Source: Kagunavirus LM08P1
Sequence record: OZ035812.1
DNA length: 42,973 bases
Reading direction: 5' to 3' (one strand)
This document shows positions 1,293 to 37,808 of this stretch, one piece after another; the stretch's first letter is position 1, and each line of letters begins with the position of its first letter. The position numbers were made by a program, and so were the translations under genes. Under the pieces are notes generated by a model. It ran no database searches. It worked only from the letters and a program-made list of their open reading frames with translations, and was not told the origin of the DNA.

Positions 1293-2768
1293 ATGTTAAC
1301 TATGAACGGTCAGAATCAGGGTGTTAAGACAAAACACCGGGAATGGCTGCATCACTTCGATAAATGGCAGAAGGTACGCCACGCGCTGGAAGGCGACCTT
1401 ATTCGCTATCTGCGCAACGTCGGGAAGAACGAACCTGACCCGACCTACGCAGCCCAGCGCCAGGAAGAATACGAGAACGGTGCTATCTGTTACAACTTCA
1501 CTAAACGTACCCTGGCGGGGATGACGGGGTCAGTGATGCGCAAAGACCCTGAGCAGATTATCCCGCCTGAACTTGAGTACCTGTTGCACAACGCTGACGG
1601 TTCGGGTGTAGGGCTGTGGCAGCACGCGCAGGATACGTTAATGGAGATTGACTCGATAGGACGCGGTGGGTTGCTGGTGGATGCCCCGGAAACAGCCGCA
1701 GCAACGGCGGCAGAGCAGAACGCGGGATTATTAAACCCGGTAATCGCATTCTATACCGCGGAGAACATTATCAACTGGAGACTCACCCGCATCGGTTCAG
1801 TGAACCGCGTGACGATGGTTGTATTGCGTGAGGCATGGGAATACTCGGAACCAGGCGCTGAGTTTGAAACAAAATTCGGCGAGCAATACCGCGTCCTTGA
1901 CCTGATTGACGGTCGCTACCGCCAGCGCATCTACCGCTTCGATGCCGAAGGTGGCGCACAGGATGAAGTAATCGAAATCTTCCCGGAACTCGGCGAACAG
2001 TTGCGCGGTAAAATCCCGTTCACGTTCATTGGCGCAAGCAACAACGACGCCACTATAGACGATGCGCCTTTACTGCCGTTAGCTGAGCTAAATATAGGAC
2101 ACTTCAGAAATTCGGCCGATGTGGAAGAGGCCAGCTTTATAGTAGGTCAACCGACACTGTTCATTGCCCCCGGCGAGAACATGAGCATGGAGCAGTGGAA
2201 AGAAGCCAACCCACACGGCATACGCATGGGGTCGCGTTCAGGCCACAACATCGGCTCCGGCGGAAATGCGTTTCTGGTTCAGGCGGCGGAAACTAACCTC
2301 GCCAAACAGAATATGCTGGATAAAGAGAATCAGGCCATCCAGATTGGCGCGCAGCTTATCACCCCGACGCAGCAAATCACCGCGGAATCGGCCCGCCTGC
2401 AACGCGGCGCCGACACGTCAGTCATGGCAACAATCGCACGTAACGTAAGCATGGCGTATACCGATGCGTTGCGCTGGGTGGCCGCGATGCTAGGGCTGCG
2501 TGAGGATACTGAAATTGAGTTCAAGCTGAATATGGAGTTCTTCCTGCAACCTATGACCGCTCAGGACCGTGCACAGTGGATGGCTGACATTAACGCAGGC
2601 CTGTTACCGGCTACTGCTTACTATGCTGCGTTGCGTAAGGCTGGCGTAACTGACTGGACCGACGAAGACATTCAGAACGCTATTGAAGACGCGCCGCTGC
2701 CGTTAGGCGCTGTTACTCAGGTGGCGGGAGAGATTCCGCAGTCGGCGCAGCAACAACAATCGGAGTAG
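1293..2768 (+). CDS. portal protein
   Basis: 491 aa ORF immediately after terminase large subunit; RBS GAGGA upstream; position and size typical of portal; no motif-level proof. Confidence 0.7.
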   Translation: MLTMNGQNQGVKTKHREWLHHFDKWQKVRHALEGDLIRYLRNVGKNEPDPTYAAQRQEEYENGAICYNFTKRTLAGMTGSVMRKDPEQIIPPELEYLLHNADGSGVGLWQHAQDTLMEIDSIGRGGLLVDAPETAAATAAEQNAGLLNPVIAFYTAENIINWRLTRIGSVNRVTMVVLREAWEYSEPGAEFETKFGEQYRVLDLIDGRYRQRIYRFDAEGGAQDEVIEIFPELGEQLRGKIPFTFIGASNNDATIDDAPLLPLAELNIGHFRNSADVEEASFIVGQPTLFIAPGENMSMEQWKEANPHGIRMGSRSGHNIGSGGNAFLVQAAETNLAKQNMLDKENQAIQIGAQLITPTQQITAESARLQRGADTSVMATIARNVSMAYTDALRWVAAMLGLREDTEIEFKLNMEFFLQPMTAQDRAQWMADINAGLLPATAYYAALRKAGVTDWTDEDIQNAIEDAPLPLGAVTQVAGEIPQSAQQQQSE

Positions 2769-2773
2769 AGAAA

Positions 2774-2804
2774 AAGGCCCCGTTATGGGGCCTTATTTTT
2801 ATTT
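2774..2804. terminator. intrinsic terminator hairpin (bidirectional)
   Basis: GGCCCCG-TTAT-GGGGCC hairpin flanked by A-run upstream and T-run downstream, between convergent portal (+) and 2799..3083 (-). Confidence 0.6.
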
Positions 2805-3083
2805 CTTTCCTAATGCTTTCTTGATTGCTCTGTTGGCCCGATTTAATGGATGGTCTTCATGGCAATCATCAGAAGATACTGCACAAACATCCTCGACGTA
2901 ATCGCGAAGCTGGCGAAGTGCTTCAAGTAACTCGGGTGCCGAGGTGATAAGTTTTGCGTTAGCTAATTTTACGGAGTCCTTTTCCCGCATACTCATTACC
3001 TCGGCCACATAAACGTCCCCCGCCCAGATAGCTGTTCCGTGATTAACCCATGCGCCGTCTGTACCTTTAAATTTGTGTGTCAT
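2799..3083 (-). CDS. hypothetical protein (opposite-strand gene in head module; possibly Ead/Ea22-like, motif APELLEAL recalled from memory)
   Basis: 94 aa ORF on minus strand with RBS AGGAGG upstream of ATG at 3083; own promoter element at 3107..3139; terminator at its 3' end. Confidence 0.55.
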   Translation of the reverse strand: MTHKFKGTDGAWVNHGTAIWAGDVYVAEVMSMREKDSVKLANAKLITSAPELLEALRQLRDYVEDVCAVSSDDCHEDHPLNRANRAIKKALGKK

Positions 3084-3106
3084 TTTTAACCTCCTGTTTA
3101 AGTTAA

Positions 3107-3139
3107 CTGAATAGTACCCTATTATATTGGTGTCTGCAA
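3107..3139 (-). promoter_or_regulatory. sigma70-like promoter with palindromic operator-like core (family 1), minus-directed
   Basis: Minus strand reads TTGCAG-N17-TACTAT with TATAATAGGG inside spacer; core TGAATAG-N4-CTATT inverted repeat; sits 24 nt upstream of minus gene start 3083. Confidence 0.55.
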
Positions 3140-3183
3140 ATATTATTTTTATGCGTTACACTGGCGATACTACAGGAGGGCAC

Positions 3184-4227
3184 ATGAGCTTACTTACATC
3201 CCTAATCAGCCACCAGATATGGCTGCAACGCACCGCATCCGGTGAAGTGAAAGACCTTGCGCCGTTTCTTCAGGAAATGCGGGACGAAATCAAACGGCAG
3301 GTCCTGTTATTCGGTGACGACGGGCGAAGCACTGCGCGACTGAATAAACTGTTGCGCGACCTCGAAGAAGCACTAACCGGACTTACCGGTGACTGGCAAA
3401 CAAAGCTGACAGAAGACCTTAAGGAGCTGGCAGCGTATGAGGCTGAGTGGAACACAAAGACACTGGCCGCCAACGTAAATGCGGAATTTGTTACGCCTAC
3501 TGCCGAGCAAGTGTGGGCCGCCGCCGAGTTTCAACCCTTATCATTAAGCGACAAACCTGTCGATTTCACTAAGCTGATGGATGGCTGGGGTGAAACCGAA
3601 GTCGCGCGCCTGGTAACTGGCGTTAAGATGGGCTTTGTCCAAGGCCAGACGACACGGCAGATTGTTAAGAATGTTGTTGGCGCTGGTGGACTAGCCGACA
3701 TCTCAGAACGTAACGCGACTACGGTAATCCGCACCGCGCTGTCCCACGTATCCAACGAGGCCCGTAACGAGACGTACCGCCAGAACGACAACATCATCGA
3801 GAAGTACGAGTGGGTGTCAACGCTTGACAGCCGCACCAGTACGATTTGCAGGGTCAGAGACGGGATGACGTGGGAAATTGGTAAGGGGCCGATGCCCCCA
3901 GCCCATCCGAACTGCCGGTCGTGCACGGCTCCGGTAATCAGTTCCGAGTTCGACTTCCTCGATAAAGGCGCAAAACGCGCGGCTAAAGGAGCGGACGGCG
4001 GTACTCAGGTAAGCACGGACACCACCTATTACGAGTTCCTTAAACAACAACCGGCGTGGTTTCAGGACCAGGCGCTCGGCCCGGTGCGAGGTAAGATTTT
4101 CCGTAACAGCGGTATATCGCCGGAAGAGTTTCGCGTAATATCTGTAGATGGTTTCGGGAATCCGCTCACGCTTAAGCAGATGGCGGAACTCGATAAACGT
4201 GTTGCTGATTATCTGAAAGGGGAATAA
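3184..4227 (+). CDS. head morphogenesis / minor head protein (Mu F / SPP1 gp7-like)
   Basis: ORF frame 3127..4227; most likely start ATG 3184 preceded by AGGAGGG; C-terminal region with conserved Cys/His pattern (STICRVRDG...PPAHPNCRSC) recalled as Mu F-like; position after portal. Confidence 0.65.
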   Translation: MSLLTSLISHQIWLQRTASGEVKDLAPFLQEMRDEIKRQVLLFGDDGRSTARLNKLLRDLEEALTGLTGDWQTKLTEDLKELAAYEAEWNTKTLAANVNAEFVTPTAEQVWAAAEFQPLSLSDKPVDFTKLMDGWGETEVARLVTGVKMGFVQGQTTRQIVKNVVGAGGLADISERNATTVIRTALSHVSNEARNETYRQNDNIIEKYEWVSTLDSRTSTICRVRDGMTWEIGKGPMPPAHPNCRSCTAPVISSEFDFLDKGAKRAAKGADGGTQVSTDTTYYEFLKQQPAWFQDQALGPVRGKIFRNSGISPEEFRVISVDGFGNPLTLKQMAELDKRVADYLKGE

Positions 4228-4688
4228 TGATGGGCTTTTTCAAAGTAACTGATGTACCTTCACGTCGCGTAGTCCAGTACGCCCGCGTGTCTGGCTCTGG
4301 CGAGAACGTGACCTACGTTGAGGATGAAAGTGTACTGGGTGAACCCGTAGACGAGATGCCATATGCGGATAAAACCGGTATCGCGCTGACGGCGGCAGGT
4401 ATGCTCTATGAGATTCCGTATCTGGCAGATGCTGGCGACGTGTATTTCTCGGTACAACCGCGGGACACGGAACTGGCTGACGGCAGCGCAGCTATCACTG
4501 TCGAAGTTAAAGCGGGTAAAGCGCCATATACGCTGACCTGGTACAAAGACGGGAAGGAAGTGGTAAACGCCCCGGAAGAGGCTTTGTCCCTGACGGTTAA
4601 CGCGACCGGCGAATACTTCGTTAAAGTTACTGATGCCGATGGTGTAGAGGCGGTGAGTAAAGCGGCGAAGGTTACTAAGCCAGAATGA
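4227..4688 (+). CDS. Ig-like domain protein (possible capsid-associated)
   Basis: 153 aa; C-terminal segment with alternating beta-strand pattern PYTLTWYKDGKEV...GEYFVKVTDADG resembling Ig-like (I-set) domains; start overlaps previous stop (TAATG). Confidence 0.5.
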   Translation: MMGFFKVTDVPSRRVVQYARVSGSGENVTYVEDESVLGEPVDEMPYADKTGIALTAAGMLYEIPYLADAGDVYFSVQPRDTELADGSAAITVEVKAGKAPYTLTWYKDGKEVVNAPEEALSLTVNATGEYFVKVTDADGVEAVSKAAKVTKPE

Positions 4689-4691
4689 TAA

Positions 4692-4720
4692 GAGGCCCCA
4701 TAATGGGGCCTTAGATTTTT
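4692..4720 (+). terminator. intrinsic terminator hairpin
   Basis: GGCCCCA-TAA-TGGGGCC hairpin followed by T-rich run TTAGATTTTT. Confidence 0.55.
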
Positions 4721-5025
4721 CCTATTAGATTTTTAATTCTGTCGCGTTCTATTCTTTTCCCTTCTTCTACTCCCTCATTGAAGTATCTTTCTACATCATC
4801 CTTATTGACCTTACGAACTGCTGCGCCCTCTTTATATAGCTCTTGATTGTCGCGCAATACCTTAATCTTAGCGATTATTTCATTAAAAGGTGCGTCAGCA
4901 CGTATTTTGAGCATAGACCTTACCTGTTCTACGAACCATGCAAAATTAGGCTTTTTTGATAATTTCTCTCTTAAAACAGCGTTCTCTTGTTCCGCTTTTG
5001 TGGCGCGAGCACGATAATCAATCAT
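4711..5025 (-). CDS. hypothetical protein (opposite-strand, AT-rich gene in head module)
   Basis: 104 aa ORF on minus strand, lysine/glutamate rich; ATG at 5025; promoter element at 5063..5095; visibly more AT-rich than flanking structural genes. Confidence 0.55.
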   Translation of the reverse strand: MIDYRARATKAEQENAVLREKLSKKPNFAWFVEQVRSMLKIRADAPFNEIIAKIKVLRDNQELYKEGAAVRKVNKDDVERYFNEGVEEGKRIERDRIKNLIGKI

Positions 5026-5062
5026 TTTAGCAAACCTCTATCTTCATTAAACAGCACCAATA

Positions 5063-5095
5063 ACTGAATAGTACCCTATTATATCGGGGCATGTA
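5063..5095 (-). promoter_or_regulatory. sigma70-like promoter with palindromic operator-like core (family 1), minus-directed
   Basis: Minus strand reads TTACAT-N17-TACTAT with TATAATAGGG in spacer; nearly identical to elements at 3107, 14187, 36341, 37776. Confidence 0.55.
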
Positions 5096-5111
5096 AACTA
5101 TTTATTTACGT

Positions 5112-5162
5112 ATTCCAGTTATTCCACTCAATTGTAAATGTTGGAATAAACTATTCGAATAG
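5112..5162 (+). promoter_or_regulatory. cluster of GGAAT/ATTCC motifs and 12-bp palindrome CTATTCGAATAG immediately upstream of promoter
   Basis: ATTCC at 5112 and 5121, GGAAT at 5143, perfect palindrome CTATTCGAATAG 5151..5162 abutting the -35 hexamer at 5163. Confidence 0.35.
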
Positions 5163-5191
5163 TTGACTTTTCACTAAAAATGTGCTAAGCT
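5163..5191 (+). promoter_or_regulatory. sigma70-like promoter (TTGACT-N17-TAAGCT, extended -10 TG) driving structured RNA element A
   Basis: -35 TTGACT 5163..5168, 17-nt spacer, -10 TAAGCT 5186..5191 with TG two nt upstream; same hexamers and spacing at 36032..36060 while spacer sequence differs. Confidence 0.55.
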
Positions 5192-5197
5192 CCACCT

Positions 5198-5397
5198 GAG
5201 CTTGTGAAGTATGAACAAGCGACCGCGGCGCGGGCAGGTAACGGAGCGGGACGTAAGTCCTGAGTGTAGTTACGCTGACGCGTTCGGAAGGGCCATACTC
5301 TATTGCTTGTGTAAAAAGTAACTGGTTTACTGAGATTACGCCGTTTCTATGTTTAAATGATAAGGACTAGCGCCCCGCTTTATGGCGGGGCTTTACT
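5198..5397 (+). ncRNA. candidate structured noncoding RNA / leader element, copy A (unidentified family)
   Basis: About 200 nt between promoter and terminator hairpin (5371..5391 + T-run); shares conserved blocks with copy B (36067..36300) with hairpin-preserving substitutions; no reading frame conserved between copies. Confidence 0.5.
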
Positions 5398-5415
5398 TAT
5401 CGAGAAAGGAGAAAC

Positions 5416-12156: not shown

Positions 12157-12184
12157 CTAAGGCCCCTTTCGGGGCCTTTTTCTT
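12157..12184. terminator. bidirectional intrinsic terminator
   Basis: AAGGCCCC-TTTC-GGGGCCTT hairpin with A-run upstream and T-run downstream; separates + major tail gene from - island; almost identical to terminator at 24206. Confidence 0.65.
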
Positions 12185-12413
12185 ACTCATCAATATTGCT
12201 TCGGTATTCCCGTAACTTCTCCAGACTTTCAATTGCTTCCGCTAAGTCGGTTCCGGTGTCCTTGTGTCCGCGCAAGCCCATGCACAATAGCTTCTTCAAT
12301 GCGTGCTGTAGCGCCGGGTCGCGTATATCGAAGGCGCGGAGCACATCATAAACGTCTACTGTCATAGTGCTGCCGTGAGTGTTTGTCATTGTGCGGTTGT
12401 ATTTTGAAGTCAT
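12183..12413 (-). CDS. hypothetical protein (island gene 4)
   Basis: 76 aa; start ATG 12413 overlaps stop of upstream gene (ATGA coupling). Confidence 0.5.
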   Translation of the reverse strand: MTSKYNRTMTNTHGSTMTVDVYDVLRAFDIRDPALQHALKKLLCMGLRGHKDTGTDLAEAIESLEKLREYRSNIDE

Positions 12414-12643
12414 AAATGGCTCTCATCTATAAGAACGATAACTGCCGAAATCGAAACGGCACCTACATATAAAAGACGCATCTCGGTCGGCGCTATAGCG
12501 GTAACAGCTTCGTACAGGCCCGAGAACACGGACAAATCCATAGAGATAAATGTTAAGACCGCCGCCATTCCTAGTACCGCGGTGGATAAAACCAGTAAAA
12601 CCACAACAGGCATTATGGCGAAAATCCACAAGGCTTTAATCAT
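12410..12643 (-). CDS. small membrane protein (two predicted TM helices)
   Basis: 77 aa, two long hydrophobic stretches; start ATG 12643 overlaps stop of metallophosphoesterase gene (ATGA). Confidence 0.5.
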   Translation of the reverse strand: MIKALWIFAIMPVVVLLVLSTAVLGMAAVLTFISMDLSVFSGLYEAVTAIAPTEMRLLYVGAVSISAVIVLIDESHL

Positions 12644-13770
12644 CCCAGCATCTCCGGTGAAATAGTTAAACGTGCGACCTCGCCATATTCGGCGCTATAA
12701 GTAATTACATTTGCGCTACGACCCGACATCCAGCCGCCTCTGGAGGCGTAGGCATCTTTAGCCGCCAGGGTGCGGTGTTGCTCAACAATCATGTTACGGC
12801 TTTCTACAATCTTCTGATGGTGCAGGTGGCCTACGTGGGCGTAACTGTAAACACTCTCGCCGAACGCTTTGCGGAACTTGGCAATCATAACCGGTTCGAT
12901 AGCGTCGAAGCGTGCTTTATGCCCGTGATGGAAGAACAGCGTCGTTTTGCCGTGTTGCACCATCTTGTAAACATCCGGCGACGTATCGACGAACACACGA
13001 GGCTCGTTGTCGTATAGCGTACTGAACATCTCAGCCAACCAAATCATTCCGCTTTCGTCATGATTCCCTTGCACGATAAGCAAGCGAACATTTTTATGCT
13101 TAACAAGGGCCATATCGACAACACGGCGCACCATACGAATCATGTAGCGGACGAGTTTCTGATAGCGGGTGTCAGCGTCAAGAACATGACCGCTTGCCGG
13201 TGTAACGGCGTCCAGACTATCGAAGTGCGCAAGGTCCCCCAGCAGACTAATAACTCCTGTTCCTGCGTCCGGCGCTTTCTGAAACGCCGCGTCGAACCAG
13301 CGTGAGAACAGGTCTTCCGCAATCTTCATATCCCAGTCGTCGCCGCTCTCGTCGGCCCAGGCCAGCATACCGAGATGGAAATCAGATACCGTGTAAAGAT
13401 TGAGTAGCTTGTCGTCACGTTTGGCGCGAACGGCTTTAACAGGTGCAACTGGCGTAATCTCTGACTTCATGCCTTCGATCACGGCTTTCATCAATTCAAC
13501 CTGACGTTCAGCGTCAGTGTCAGTCTTAACCCATTGCAGTTTAGTGTTGCCAAACTCATCGACAAGGGATGACGTTCCTTTAATCTTGTAGCCATCTGGC
13601 ACAAGGTGGCTAACGTCGCGCCCGTGGCCTACACCTTTCTTTGCCAGCTTCGCTTTGCGGATGCGAATAACGCGGTCTGAGATGCCATATTTACGAGCTA
13701 TATCGATAGTTTTAACTCCGGCGTTCAATTCTTCCTGTAACTGTTCGTCGGTTATTTTCTTCCGGGCCAT
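12640..13770 (-). CDS. HTH domain fused to calcineurin-like metallophosphoesterase
   Basis: 376 aa; N-terminal HTH-like segment (TIDIARKYGISDRVIRIRKAKL); metallophosphoesterase signature motifs in order: DFH, GDLAHFD, GNHDE, HHGH, GHLHH; RBS GAGGAAG. Confidence 0.75.
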   Translation of the reverse strand: MARKKITDEQLQEELNAGVKTIDIARKYGISDRVIRIRKAKLAKKGVGHGRDVSHLVPDGYKIKGTSSLVDEFGNTKLQWVKTDTDAERQVELMKAVIEGMKSEITPVAPVKAVRAKRDDKLLNLYTVSDFHLGMLAWADESGDDWDMKIAEDLFSRWFDAAFQKAPDAGTGVISLLGDLAHFDSLDAVTPASGHVLDADTRYQKLVRYMIRMVRRVVDMALVKHKNVRLLIVQGNHDESGMIWLAEMFSTLYDNEPRVFVDTSPDVYKMVQHGKTTLFFHHGHKARFDAIEPVMIAKFRKAFGESVYSYAHVGHLHHQKIVESRNMIVEQHRTLAAKDAYASRGGWMSGRSANVITYSAEYGEVARLTISPEMLG

Positions 13771-13835
13771 GCTTACTTCCTCGTGTTTAGGATTTGTCCT
13801 ATTTAACCACAGTGGATTCCTTTAAATAAAGGCAA

Positions 13836-14162
13836 CTATTTACTTTCTGCGCCTATCGCCCACCCTGTCATTACCATTTGCAGACGGGTGGCTGTCAGCA
13901 GGCTATAGAAAGCATCTCCGTTTTTCTCTACAGAACGTATTACCGTGTATGTTACGGCTTGCGGAGGCAGGCCCGATTTACCAACCTCTACGGCTGCCTC
14001 ACACTCGCGAACGGTAGAGTCCTTAAATGCCTTTACAATAGTAGGGTCGGCTCTATCAAGCACACCAGAAGTCATAAGAACGGATTCACTAAACACCTGT
14101 TCACACGGAGACCCAAAAGTAGCAAAAGACATAAAACCAAGAGCTAACACTAATTTACGCAT
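13836..14162 (-). CDS. secreted/periplasmic hypothetical protein
   Basis: 108 aa with N-terminal signal-peptide-like segment MRKLVLALGFMSFATFG; RBS GAGGAAA; first gene downstream of promoter 14187..14220. Confidence 0.5.
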   Translation of the reverse strand: MRKLVLALGFMSFATFGSPCEQVFSESVLMTSGVLDRADPTIVKAFKDSTVRECEAAVEVGKSGLPPQAVTYTVIRSVEKNGDAFYSLLTATRLQMVMTGWAIGAESK

Positions 14163-14186
14163 AATTATTTCCTCAGTAAGTTACAG

Positions 14187-14220
14187 GTGAATAGTACCCT
14201 ATTATATTGGGGTGTGCAAG
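14187..14220 (-). promoter_or_regulatory. sigma70-like promoter with palindromic operator-like core (family 1), minus-directed
   Basis: Minus strand reads TTGCAC-N17-TACTAT with TATAATAGGG in spacer; 31 of 33 positions identical to plus-strand element at 36341..36373. Confidence 0.55.
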
Positions 14221-36340: not shown

Positions 36341-36373
36341 TTGCACACCCCAACATAATAGGATACTATTCAC
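36341..36373 (+). promoter_or_regulatory. sigma70-like promoter with palindromic operator-like core (family 1), plus-directed
   Basis: TTGCAC-N17-TACTAT with CATAATAGG in spacer; 22 nt upstream of RBS GAGGAGTGAGGG of 36395. Confidence 0.55.
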
Positions 36374-37775: not shown

Positions 37776-37808
37776 CTTGCACACACAGATATAATAGACT
37801 ACTATTCA
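37776..37808 (+). promoter_or_regulatory. sigma70-like promoter with palindromic operator-like core (family 1), plus-directed
   Basis: TTGCAC 37777..37782, 17-nt spacer containing TATAATAG, -10 TACTAT 37800..37805; upstream of ATG 37835. Confidence 0.55.

Follow-up and report, generated by a model that had tools for sequence, protein, structure and literature searches.

A probable moron-type accessory-gene cassette at a variable junction in the head genes of Kagunavirus LM08P1

Why does a small gene lie on the minus strand between the portal and head-morphogenesis genes of a virulent phage, amidst structural genes that run along the plus strand? The question is posed by a 94-amino-acid (aa) open reading frame (ORF) of Kagunavirus LM08P1 (sequence record OZ035812.1; the whole stretch of 42,973 nucleotides (nt) is referred to as the window). 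The source phage is a Kagunavirus (Guernseyvirinae), a virulent 43-kb Escherichia coli siphophage, and the first 6 kb of the window are 88-96% identical to more than 100 Escherichia Kagunavirus phages, the closest being vB_Eco_K-02. An earlier note on this DNA had proposed that the ORF belongs to a self-contained, moron-like unit acquired at a gene junction. Our comparisons agree with that proposal: the junction is empty in most relatives and holds other cargoes in some, the unit has a lower G+C content than its surroundings, and it is relocated in phage LM02P1. It is very likely, as judged from sequence, that the feature is an autonomous moron-type accessory-gene cassette in a variable slot of the head-gene operon. 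The locus, termed slot 1 here, comprises the following features:

2772..3144, minus strand: mobile cassette consisting of hairpin, 94-aa gene, ribosome-binding site and promoter, delimited by its match to LM02P1 4335-4710
2774-2794, both strands: GC-rich hairpin AAGGCCCCGTTATGGGGCCTT, a predicted two-way intrinsic terminator, called as a terminator on each strand
2799..3083, minus strand: 94-aa ORF with an ATG start, Phage_P22_Y8K6 (PF27050, P22 orf78) family
3090-3095, minus strand: perfect Shine-Dalgarno sequence AGGAGG, 6 nt from the ATG at 3083, read from the sequence
3111..3139, minus strand: putative sigma-70-type promoter, with a -35 element TTGCAG (3139-3134), a 17-nt spacer and a -10 element TACTAT (3116-3111)
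3140..3183, plus strand: slot-1 leader carrying the Shine-Dalgarno sequence AGGAGG (3174-3179) of the head-morphogenesis gene, present only in phages with slot 1 occupied
1293-2768, plus strand: portal gene (PF13264, E=1e-24; phrog_145, portal, E=1.5e-147), the conserved left flank of slot 1
3184-4227, plus strand: head-morphogenesis gene, Mu F / SPP1 gp7-like (Phage_Mu_F, PF04233, E=1e-12; phrog_241, E=1e-152), the conserved right flank of slot 1

The ORF was found exactly where the note had placed it, in the only gap between the two flanking genes (2769-3183), and is preceded by its perfect Shine-Dalgarno sequence. Its predicted 10.4-kDa product matches phrog_1273 (E=1e-16), has 129 homologues at E<=1e-3 in a word-indexed search, and retrieves 20,212 cluster representatives at E<=1e-3 when its family is used in a profile search. 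Across four Kagunavirus copies the ratio of nonsynonymous to synonymous substitution rates (dN/dS) is 0.08-0.27, a sign that purifying selection acts on it in this genus. Taken together, these observations show the ORF to be a genuine coding gene under selection, as opposed to a chance reading frame. The note had further called it a single opposite-strand gene; it is indeed a minus-strand gene among plus-strand structural genes, but it is not the only one, as further minus-strand units are present at 4711-5025 and 12640-14162.

Evidence on the nature of the unit comes from the occupancy of slot 1 in related phages, which were drawn as an evenly spaced sample of matching records, with only Kagunaviruses in which both flanks aligned being counted (n=27). 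The slot is empty in 21 of these, the portal and head-morphogenesis genes being separated by 36 nt in K1ind1, Bas73 and LM02P1, a spacing that contains the hairpin alone and no promoter motif; in fFiEco03 the two genes are adjacent with no annotated gene between them. The 94-aa gene thus lies between genes that are neighbors in relatives. It is present in slot 1 of K-02 and EF2-1, and in PDP21P8 the gene and the promoter block are found at the same record coordinates. Counted over the phages with an occupied slot, there are at least five unrelated cargoes. Besides the 94-aa gene, CR01 and 22664BS2 have a minus-strand ORF of unknown family with identical start regions (annotated as 93 and 129 aa), UTEC10 has a 53-aa DUF7170 protein together with one of 114 aa, fBC-Eco01 and SHAK7693 have a clamp-like protein of 173 aa (phrog_3007), and EcoPhCCP1 has a 217-aa KilA-N / 'amidase' protein with a differing upstream region. 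In phage 26 the slot is of a size matching the clamp-like cargo and is annotated 'DNA polymerase III'. The cassettes with the 94-aa gene and with the CR01-type, UTEC10-type and clamp-like cargoes have in common a near-identical promoter block, a 45-nt leader and a GGCCCC...GGGGCC hairpin; the leader hardly varies between phages whose cargoes differ, and it is missing from K1ind1 and Bas73, where the slot is empty. The comparison that the note had called for therefore reveals a variable and mostly empty insertion site. We also looked for the opposite pattern, namely a gene kept at the same position in all relatives with a structural role, and did not find it, so the moron-like reading stands. 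As most relatives lack the gene, its role is probably dispensable and non-structural.

Two further equivalences between cargoes were considered and rejected upon comparison: the UTEC10 slot-1 114-aa protein is unrelated to the 114-aa cargo in slot 2 of fBC-Eco01, and the slot-2 cargo of the window is unrelated to the slot-1 cargo of CR01. Separately, we observed that the 94%-identical homologue in EF2-1 (L002 3292-3576) is mislabelled 'Efflux RND transporter permease subunit', and that vB_EcoM_SHAK7693 (L005) is a Kagunavirus by sequence, yet is filed under Autographiviridae/Kayfunavirus.

A second line of evidence is the relocation of the cassette as a unit. The window region 2772-3144 matches LM02P1 4335-4710 with 92.3% identity over 376 bp, including the promoter and an identical hairpin, and the homology ends at these boundaries. 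In LM02P1 slot 1 is empty and the 94-aa gene (94% aa identity) is found in a second slot, after the Hoc-like gene. The clamp-like 173-aa cargo behaves comparably, being present in slot 1 of fBC-Eco01 and in slot 2 of fFiEco03 with 93% identity. In the window both slots are occupied. The occurrence of two independent cargoes in two slots, bounded by common regulatory sequences, fits a swapping of cargo by homologous recombination in which the promoter and the hairpin act as arms. The base composition of the cassette is also unlike that of the surrounding genes, with a G+C content of 43-46% (43.4% over 2772..3144) against 54-55% in the flanks and a third-codon-position G+C of 42% against 60-67%.

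The regulatory frame that these cassettes share is itself a repeated element. The promoter at 3139-3111 scores 8/12, below the threshold of a generic scan, and was accordingly missed by that scan; its sister copy at 5097-5068 was called by it. A 23-nt block within the promoter, AACTGAATAGTACCCTATTATAT, occurs in 5 copies in the window (3105, 5062, 14185, 36353 and 37789) against an expectation of 0.00, and all five are correctly oriented and lie 20-30 nt upstream of a Shine-Dalgarno sequence and start codon. At the level of sequence, a correctly placed member of this five-copy family stands where the earlier note had put a promoter for the gene (3107..3139). The same motif has been described as a seven-copy repeated 'phage promoter' in fBC-Eco01 (PMC9825357). 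The copies at 3139, 5097 and 14219 precede three minus-strand units embedded in the structural region, and those on the plus strand at 36341-36372 and 37777-37808 stand before runs of tiny plus-strand ORFs, probably genes of the early phase. The spacing between the -35 and -10 elements fits host sigma-70, and transcription of the 94-aa unit would start near 3104. Given the resemblance of the promoter to the copies at 36.3 and 37.8 kb and the early-operon locations of homologues (see below), we infer that the gene is transcribed early by the host RNA polymerase. Within the shared core of the promoter family, the -10 element overlaps with a short palindrome, AATAG-N4-CTATT, which could also be a binding site for a regulator.

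At the other end of the gene, the hairpin at 2774-2794 begins 4 nt past the stop codon and is followed on the minus strand, in silico, by a U-rich tail. Its folding energies are -15.4 kcal/mol on the minus strand and -18.1 kcal/mol on the other (z about -4), and the calls on both strands accord with the bidirectional terminator that had been proposed to flank the ORF; the unit is thereby predicted to have a terminator of its own. Hairpins of the same type (AGGCCCC, 3-5 nt, GGGGCCT) are found at 2774/2775, 4693, 12160 and 24209, and they mark all four of the convergent-transcription junctions found in the window, which suggests a common design of two-way terminator at such junctions.

The constancy of this frame raises the question of whether the ORF is merely a passenger, with the promoter and hairpin as the working part, for instance by insulating or attenuating the head operon or by giving rise to antisense RNA. 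Conservation is far higher in the promoter block than in the ORF (98-100% against about 90% among K-02, EF2-1 and the window), the cargo is interchangeable, and the hairpin follows the portal gene even in relatives with an empty slot. Nevertheless, the dN/dS values of 0.08-0.27 point to purifying selection on the gene within the genus, the gene has a perfect Shine-Dalgarno sequence, its family has more than 20,000 representative relatives, and most relatives thrive without a promoter at the portal/head-morphogenesis junction. We consider the passenger explanation highly improbable.

To what family does this protein belong? All 120 listed homologues, one of them 99% identical, carry PF27050 alone in the precomputed Pfam column. 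This family, Phage_P22_Y8K6, is founded on P22 orf78, a 78-aa protein whose gene belongs to the pL operon, where ral and orf87/gene 17 flank it, and whose sequence ends ...LASAAPELLEALL...ARAAIGKALGKE. As the copy of Pfam that we scanned has no PF27050 model, the founder was compared directly with the profile built around the 94-aa protein, yielding an hhalign probability of 96% (E=2.9e-9). The homologue annotations and the match to the founder together place the 94-aa protein in PF27050, and its signature motifs are recognizable as SAPELLEAL (residues 48-56) and AIKKALGKK (residues 86-94). The family layout consists of an N-terminus of the form M.EFKGTPGPW, a variable middle that cannot be aligned, a near-invariant ANAxLIAAAPELLEAL helix and a helical end with AIxKALG; W12, P50 and I87 are invariant in 38 distant members. 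In an AlphaFold2 model of the protein (pLDDT 84), three short strands precede three helices.

The note had tentatively related the APELLEAL motif to the Ead/Ea22-like prophage proteins. This identification does not hold, the motif being instead the signature of the P22 orf78 family. The 94-aa protein and 63 relatives gave no match to Ead_Ea22 (PF13935) in Pfam at E<=1 or E<=10, and the family profile gave hhalign probabilities of 0.4% against lambda Ea22 and 0.5% against P22 EaD; lambda Ea22 itself matches Pfam Ead_Ea22 at E=1e-28. The guess was right in spirit only, inasmuch as both are early accessory proteins of lambdoid prophages.

Searches for a function from similarity were negative. No neighbor of the model was found in the PDB, and sequence and profile searches against PDB chains returned nothing meaningful; the matches in BFVD were only uncharacterised phage proteins. 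NCBIfam gave no match, and no catalytic or helix-turn-helix family was matched in Pfam, NCBIfam or PADLOC, so that the protein is unlikely to be an enzyme or a DNA binder. The source names of ten family cluster representatives were 'hypothetical protein' or absent, and no paper on function was found for the motif, phrog_1273, PF27050, P22 orf78 or NP_059602.

The genomic contexts of homologues provide more guidance. In lambdoid prophages they lie in pL-type early operons between KilR and Gam/GamL-RecT/Erf, with further placements after N (mEp213) and before cIII; in other phages their neighbors are small early genes or genes of replication. A 2.7-Mb bacterial contig has a prophage-like region (L026 3996-6075), adjoining a primase-polymerase gene, where three PF27050 genes of 248, 234 and 85 aa stand in a row, and the 234-aa protein contains two tandem copies of the domain. 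In four siphovirus genera (Caminolopintovirus, Swiduovirus, Skatevirus and Cedarrivervirus) the homologue belongs to an island of 2-2.5 kb that runs on the opposite strand amid the structural genes and also encodes a KorB/ParB-like protein and a clamp-like one, the latter with 31% identity to the alternative Kagunavirus cargo. Thus, two of the Kagunavirus cargoes have side-by-side relatives in one island of those phages.

These neighborhoods might be taken to mean that the protein is an accessory factor of recombination or replication, comparable to P22 Arf or lambda Gam/Orf, which would modulate recombination of the phage or of the host and would not act on defence. The gene indeed lies directly between KilR and Gam/GamL-RecT/Erf-SSB in lambdoid prophages, is close to Erf/SSB, primase-polymerase or DNA polymerase genes in other phages, and forms a small operon with the KorB/ParB-like and clamp-like proteins in the four siphovirus genera. 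In P22, however, the gene is situated between ral and gene 17, distant from erf, and in Kagunavirus it is a lone cassette without a partner. The 94-aa protein has no similarity to any recombination family, and a hypervariable middle would be unusual for a part that fits into a conserved recombination machine. A role of this kind therefore appears unlikely. The proximity of KorB/ParB-like genes elsewhere, with overlapping stop and start codons, the small helical nature of the protein and its possession of its own promoter could alternatively suggest a small transcriptional or DNA-binding regulator, and the P22 neighbors sieB and gene 17 a superinfection-exclusion factor acting against an incoming phage; we regard either of these as quite unlikely, and as noted above no helix-turn-helix family was matched.

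A reading of the 94-aa protein as one that binds a protein of the host or of a competing phage, in counter-defence or host takeover, is the one that we tentatively favor, though it too has less than an even chance of being correct. It is suggested by the small size of the protein (~10 kDa), the lack of an enzymatic or DNA-binding signature, the mostly acidic character of the family (median isoelectric point 5.4) and the presence of a hypervariable insert between conserved frames, as well as by the runs of paralogues and the neighbors Ral, Gam, Kil and gene 17. In such a protein the N-terminal FKGTxGxW segment and the ANAxLIxxAPELLEAL helix might serve as the scaffold, with the hypervariable beta region forming a specificity surface.

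Several points weigh against this functional reading and the early timing associated with it. The 94-aa member is near neutral (isoelectric point 6.9), and it matched no PADLOC or anti-defence family. A C-x6-CH-x2-H pattern (C67, C74, H75 and H78) is found in its subfamily, in 15 of the 64 members examined, and this loop could bind metal and point to a different chemistry. The early timing is deduced from promoter similarity to the copies at 36.3 and 37.8 kb. A Kagunavirus time-course transcriptome (PMC12645636), the supplement of which is largely host annotation, reports coarse classes with no usable per-gene timing for the slot gene, in a phage without the 94-aa gene. Finally, the authors of the fBC-Eco01 study attribute the promoter motif to a phage RNA polymerase (PMC9825357).

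The family also shows a mosaic organization within the gene. When the 94-aa gene was compared with homologues from the four siphovirus genera, the C-terminal 53 codons (window 2799-2960) showed about 85% nucleotide identity and about 70% identity at third codon positions, whereas the middle of the gene showed 29-33% nucleotide identity, which is the random level, in three of the four genera and 63% in swi2, with third-position identity of 22-35%. As protein, the middle of the swi2 homologue retains 69% identity. The contrast between the conserved 3' part and the random-level middle suggests that the 3' half was recently exchanged between otherwise unrelated phages; the conservation of the C-terminal codons thus indicates either recent intragenic exchange or an additional constraint at the DNA level. 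No RNA element was detected in the cassette or in the conserved 3' part of the gene: Rfam gave no match, whether at the gathering score or at E<=1, and tRNAs were likewise absent.

These observations can be combined into a bolder proposal. The P22 orf78 family might represent a very large, unrecognised counter-defence or host-targeting family, in which the conserved ends double as recombination arms for a hypervariable target-binding insert (an idea that fits the third-position identities of about 70% in the C-terminal 53 codons and about 30% in the middle), and the Kagunavirus frames might in addition constitute a PeSL-like shuffling system in small siphoviruses that moves genes between fixed slots, perhaps via circular intermediates. 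The chance that all of this is correct is small.

On the preferred reading of an accessory-gene cassette, the unit may be envisaged to work in the following manner. The sigma-70-type promoter would fire leftward, opposing the structural operon, and give rise to a transcript of ~330 nt with one gene and a strong ribosome-binding site. This transcript would stop at the GC hairpin, which might also terminate or attenuate rightward transcription past the portal gene. The product would be a 94-aa, non-structural and dispensable protein of the P22 orf78 family, made early in infection. Upon co-infection by different phages, homologous recombination could swap the cargo or shift the cassette between slots; this would be possible because the promoter block and the hairpin are common to cassettes with unrelated cargoes and to slot 2.

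The remaining features of relevance in the window are as follows:

30-1280: large terminase
4227-4688: Hoc-like decoration protein
4692-5100, minus strand: slot-2 cassette, with a hairpin at 4693-4711, a 104-aa ORF at 4711-5025 and a promoter (TTTACA, 18 nt, TACTAT) at 5097-5068
Beyond 4711-5025 (second minus-strand ORF): spanins and additional head genes
5163-5191: weak promoter-like site of the unit at 5140-5400, with TTGACT (5163-5168), 17 nt and TAAGCT (5186-5191), and a TG before the -10-like element
5211-5321: 36-aa ORF of the same unit, with a strong terminator at 5372-5391
12160-14219, minus strand: third minus-strand island in the structural region, with a family promoter at 14219-14188 and a hairpin of the same type at 12160-12177
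12640-13770, minus strand: 376-aa ORF of the third island
13836-14162, minus strand: 108-aa ORF of the third island, whose N-terminus MRKLVLALGFMSFATFG resembles a signal peptide

The 104-aa ORF of slot 2 belongs to phrog_10768 / phrog_16432 (unknown function) and has a G+C content of 37.8%. This slot is likewise variable, being empty in K1ind1 and EF2-1 and holding other small ORFs in Bas73, SHAK7693 and fBC-Eco01. The clamp-like 173-aa cargo (L004 2793-3314; L025 4348-4869; L023 4500-5036) is variously annotated 'DNA polymerase III sliding clamp', 'RusA-like resolvase' and 'DNA polymerase'. It has only a sub-threshold match to the beta-clamp domain (E=0.006) and shares 31% identity with a gene of Shigella phage Sf11 encoded in one island with the orf78 homologue. 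Probably it is a lone clamp-like domain, for which the names in public records seem too strong. A further unit, of ~230 nt (5140-5400), separates the slot-2 promoter from the spanin gene and could be a tiny gene or a small RNA; its folding is not significantly better than that of shuffled sequences (z=-1.8) and it has no Rfam match. With regard to lifestyle, the authors of the fBC-Eco01 study reported finding neither an integrase nor lysogeny-associated genes in that one Kagunavirus (PMC9825357).

Overall, the locus is well verified as a feature of an ordinary kind, namely a moron-like cassette with a member of a known but uncharacterised family. Mildly new are the common promoter/hairpin 'socket' that accepts different cargoes, the movement of cassettes from one Kagunavirus slot to another and the mosaic architecture of the protein family. 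The presence of fixed 'expression sockets' with swapped accessory genes in the Kagunavirus head operon is useful for annotation and for the engineering of phage-therapy cargoes, and the comparison corrects misleading public annotations such as 'efflux RND transporter', 'DNA polymerase III sliding clamp' and 'RusA-like'. Furthermore, closely related therapeutic-type E. coli phages that differ by the presence, absence or position of the cassette offer a clean natural experiment, and through such near-isogenic phages the function of a common uncharacterised early family (more than 20,000 representative clusters, including P22 orf78) can be tested.

How does the cassette compare with known systems? 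With the Ead/Ea22 proteins (PF13935), to which it has no detectable homology, the 94-aa protein has in common an A/L/E-rich helix and membership among the accessory early lambdoid-prophage proteins of unknown function. With P22 orf78 it shares the xAPELLEAL helix, the C-terminal AIxKALGK, a similar size and the early-operon context of the family. The Kagunavirus copy differs from orf78 in its fuller N-terminal FKGTxGxW, in its middle region and in its C-x6-CH-x2-H loop, which orf78 lacks, and it is a stand-alone cassette in a structural operon, whereas orf78 belongs to the pL operon.

The moron concept reportedly comes from the lambdoid phages HK97 and HK022 (Hendrix and colleagues). As in morons, an extra single gene, here with a predicted terminator and a putative promoter of its own, lies in the late structural operon, between genes that are adjacent in relatives, and shows a deviating base composition and variable presence. 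The cassette differs from them in that its host phage is virulent, so that prophage expression and lysogenic conversion do not arise and the gene would be expressed during lytic growth; it would also be transcribed counter to the operon, and its putative promoter is drawn from the phage's own repeated family and is not foreign.

The PeSL cassettes of T4-type phages, a close parallel, combine a strong, repeated sigma-70-like promoter and a stem-loop terminator around non-essential ORFs (PMC2839356, PMC4122927). In Kagunavirus the promoter and the stem-loop stand apart, one at either end of the gene with about 315 bp between them, instead of making up a single contiguous motif; the units occupy isolated junctions of the structural operon, whereas PeSL are found in large hyperplastic regions, and the host here is a 43-kb siphovirus. 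The two arrangements agree in that the frame, represented in the window by five promoter copies and four hairpins of one type, surrounds unrelated cargoes, and in that, on comparative evidence, the cargo has been replaced or moved between copies, as would be expected from recombination at repeated regulatory sequences.

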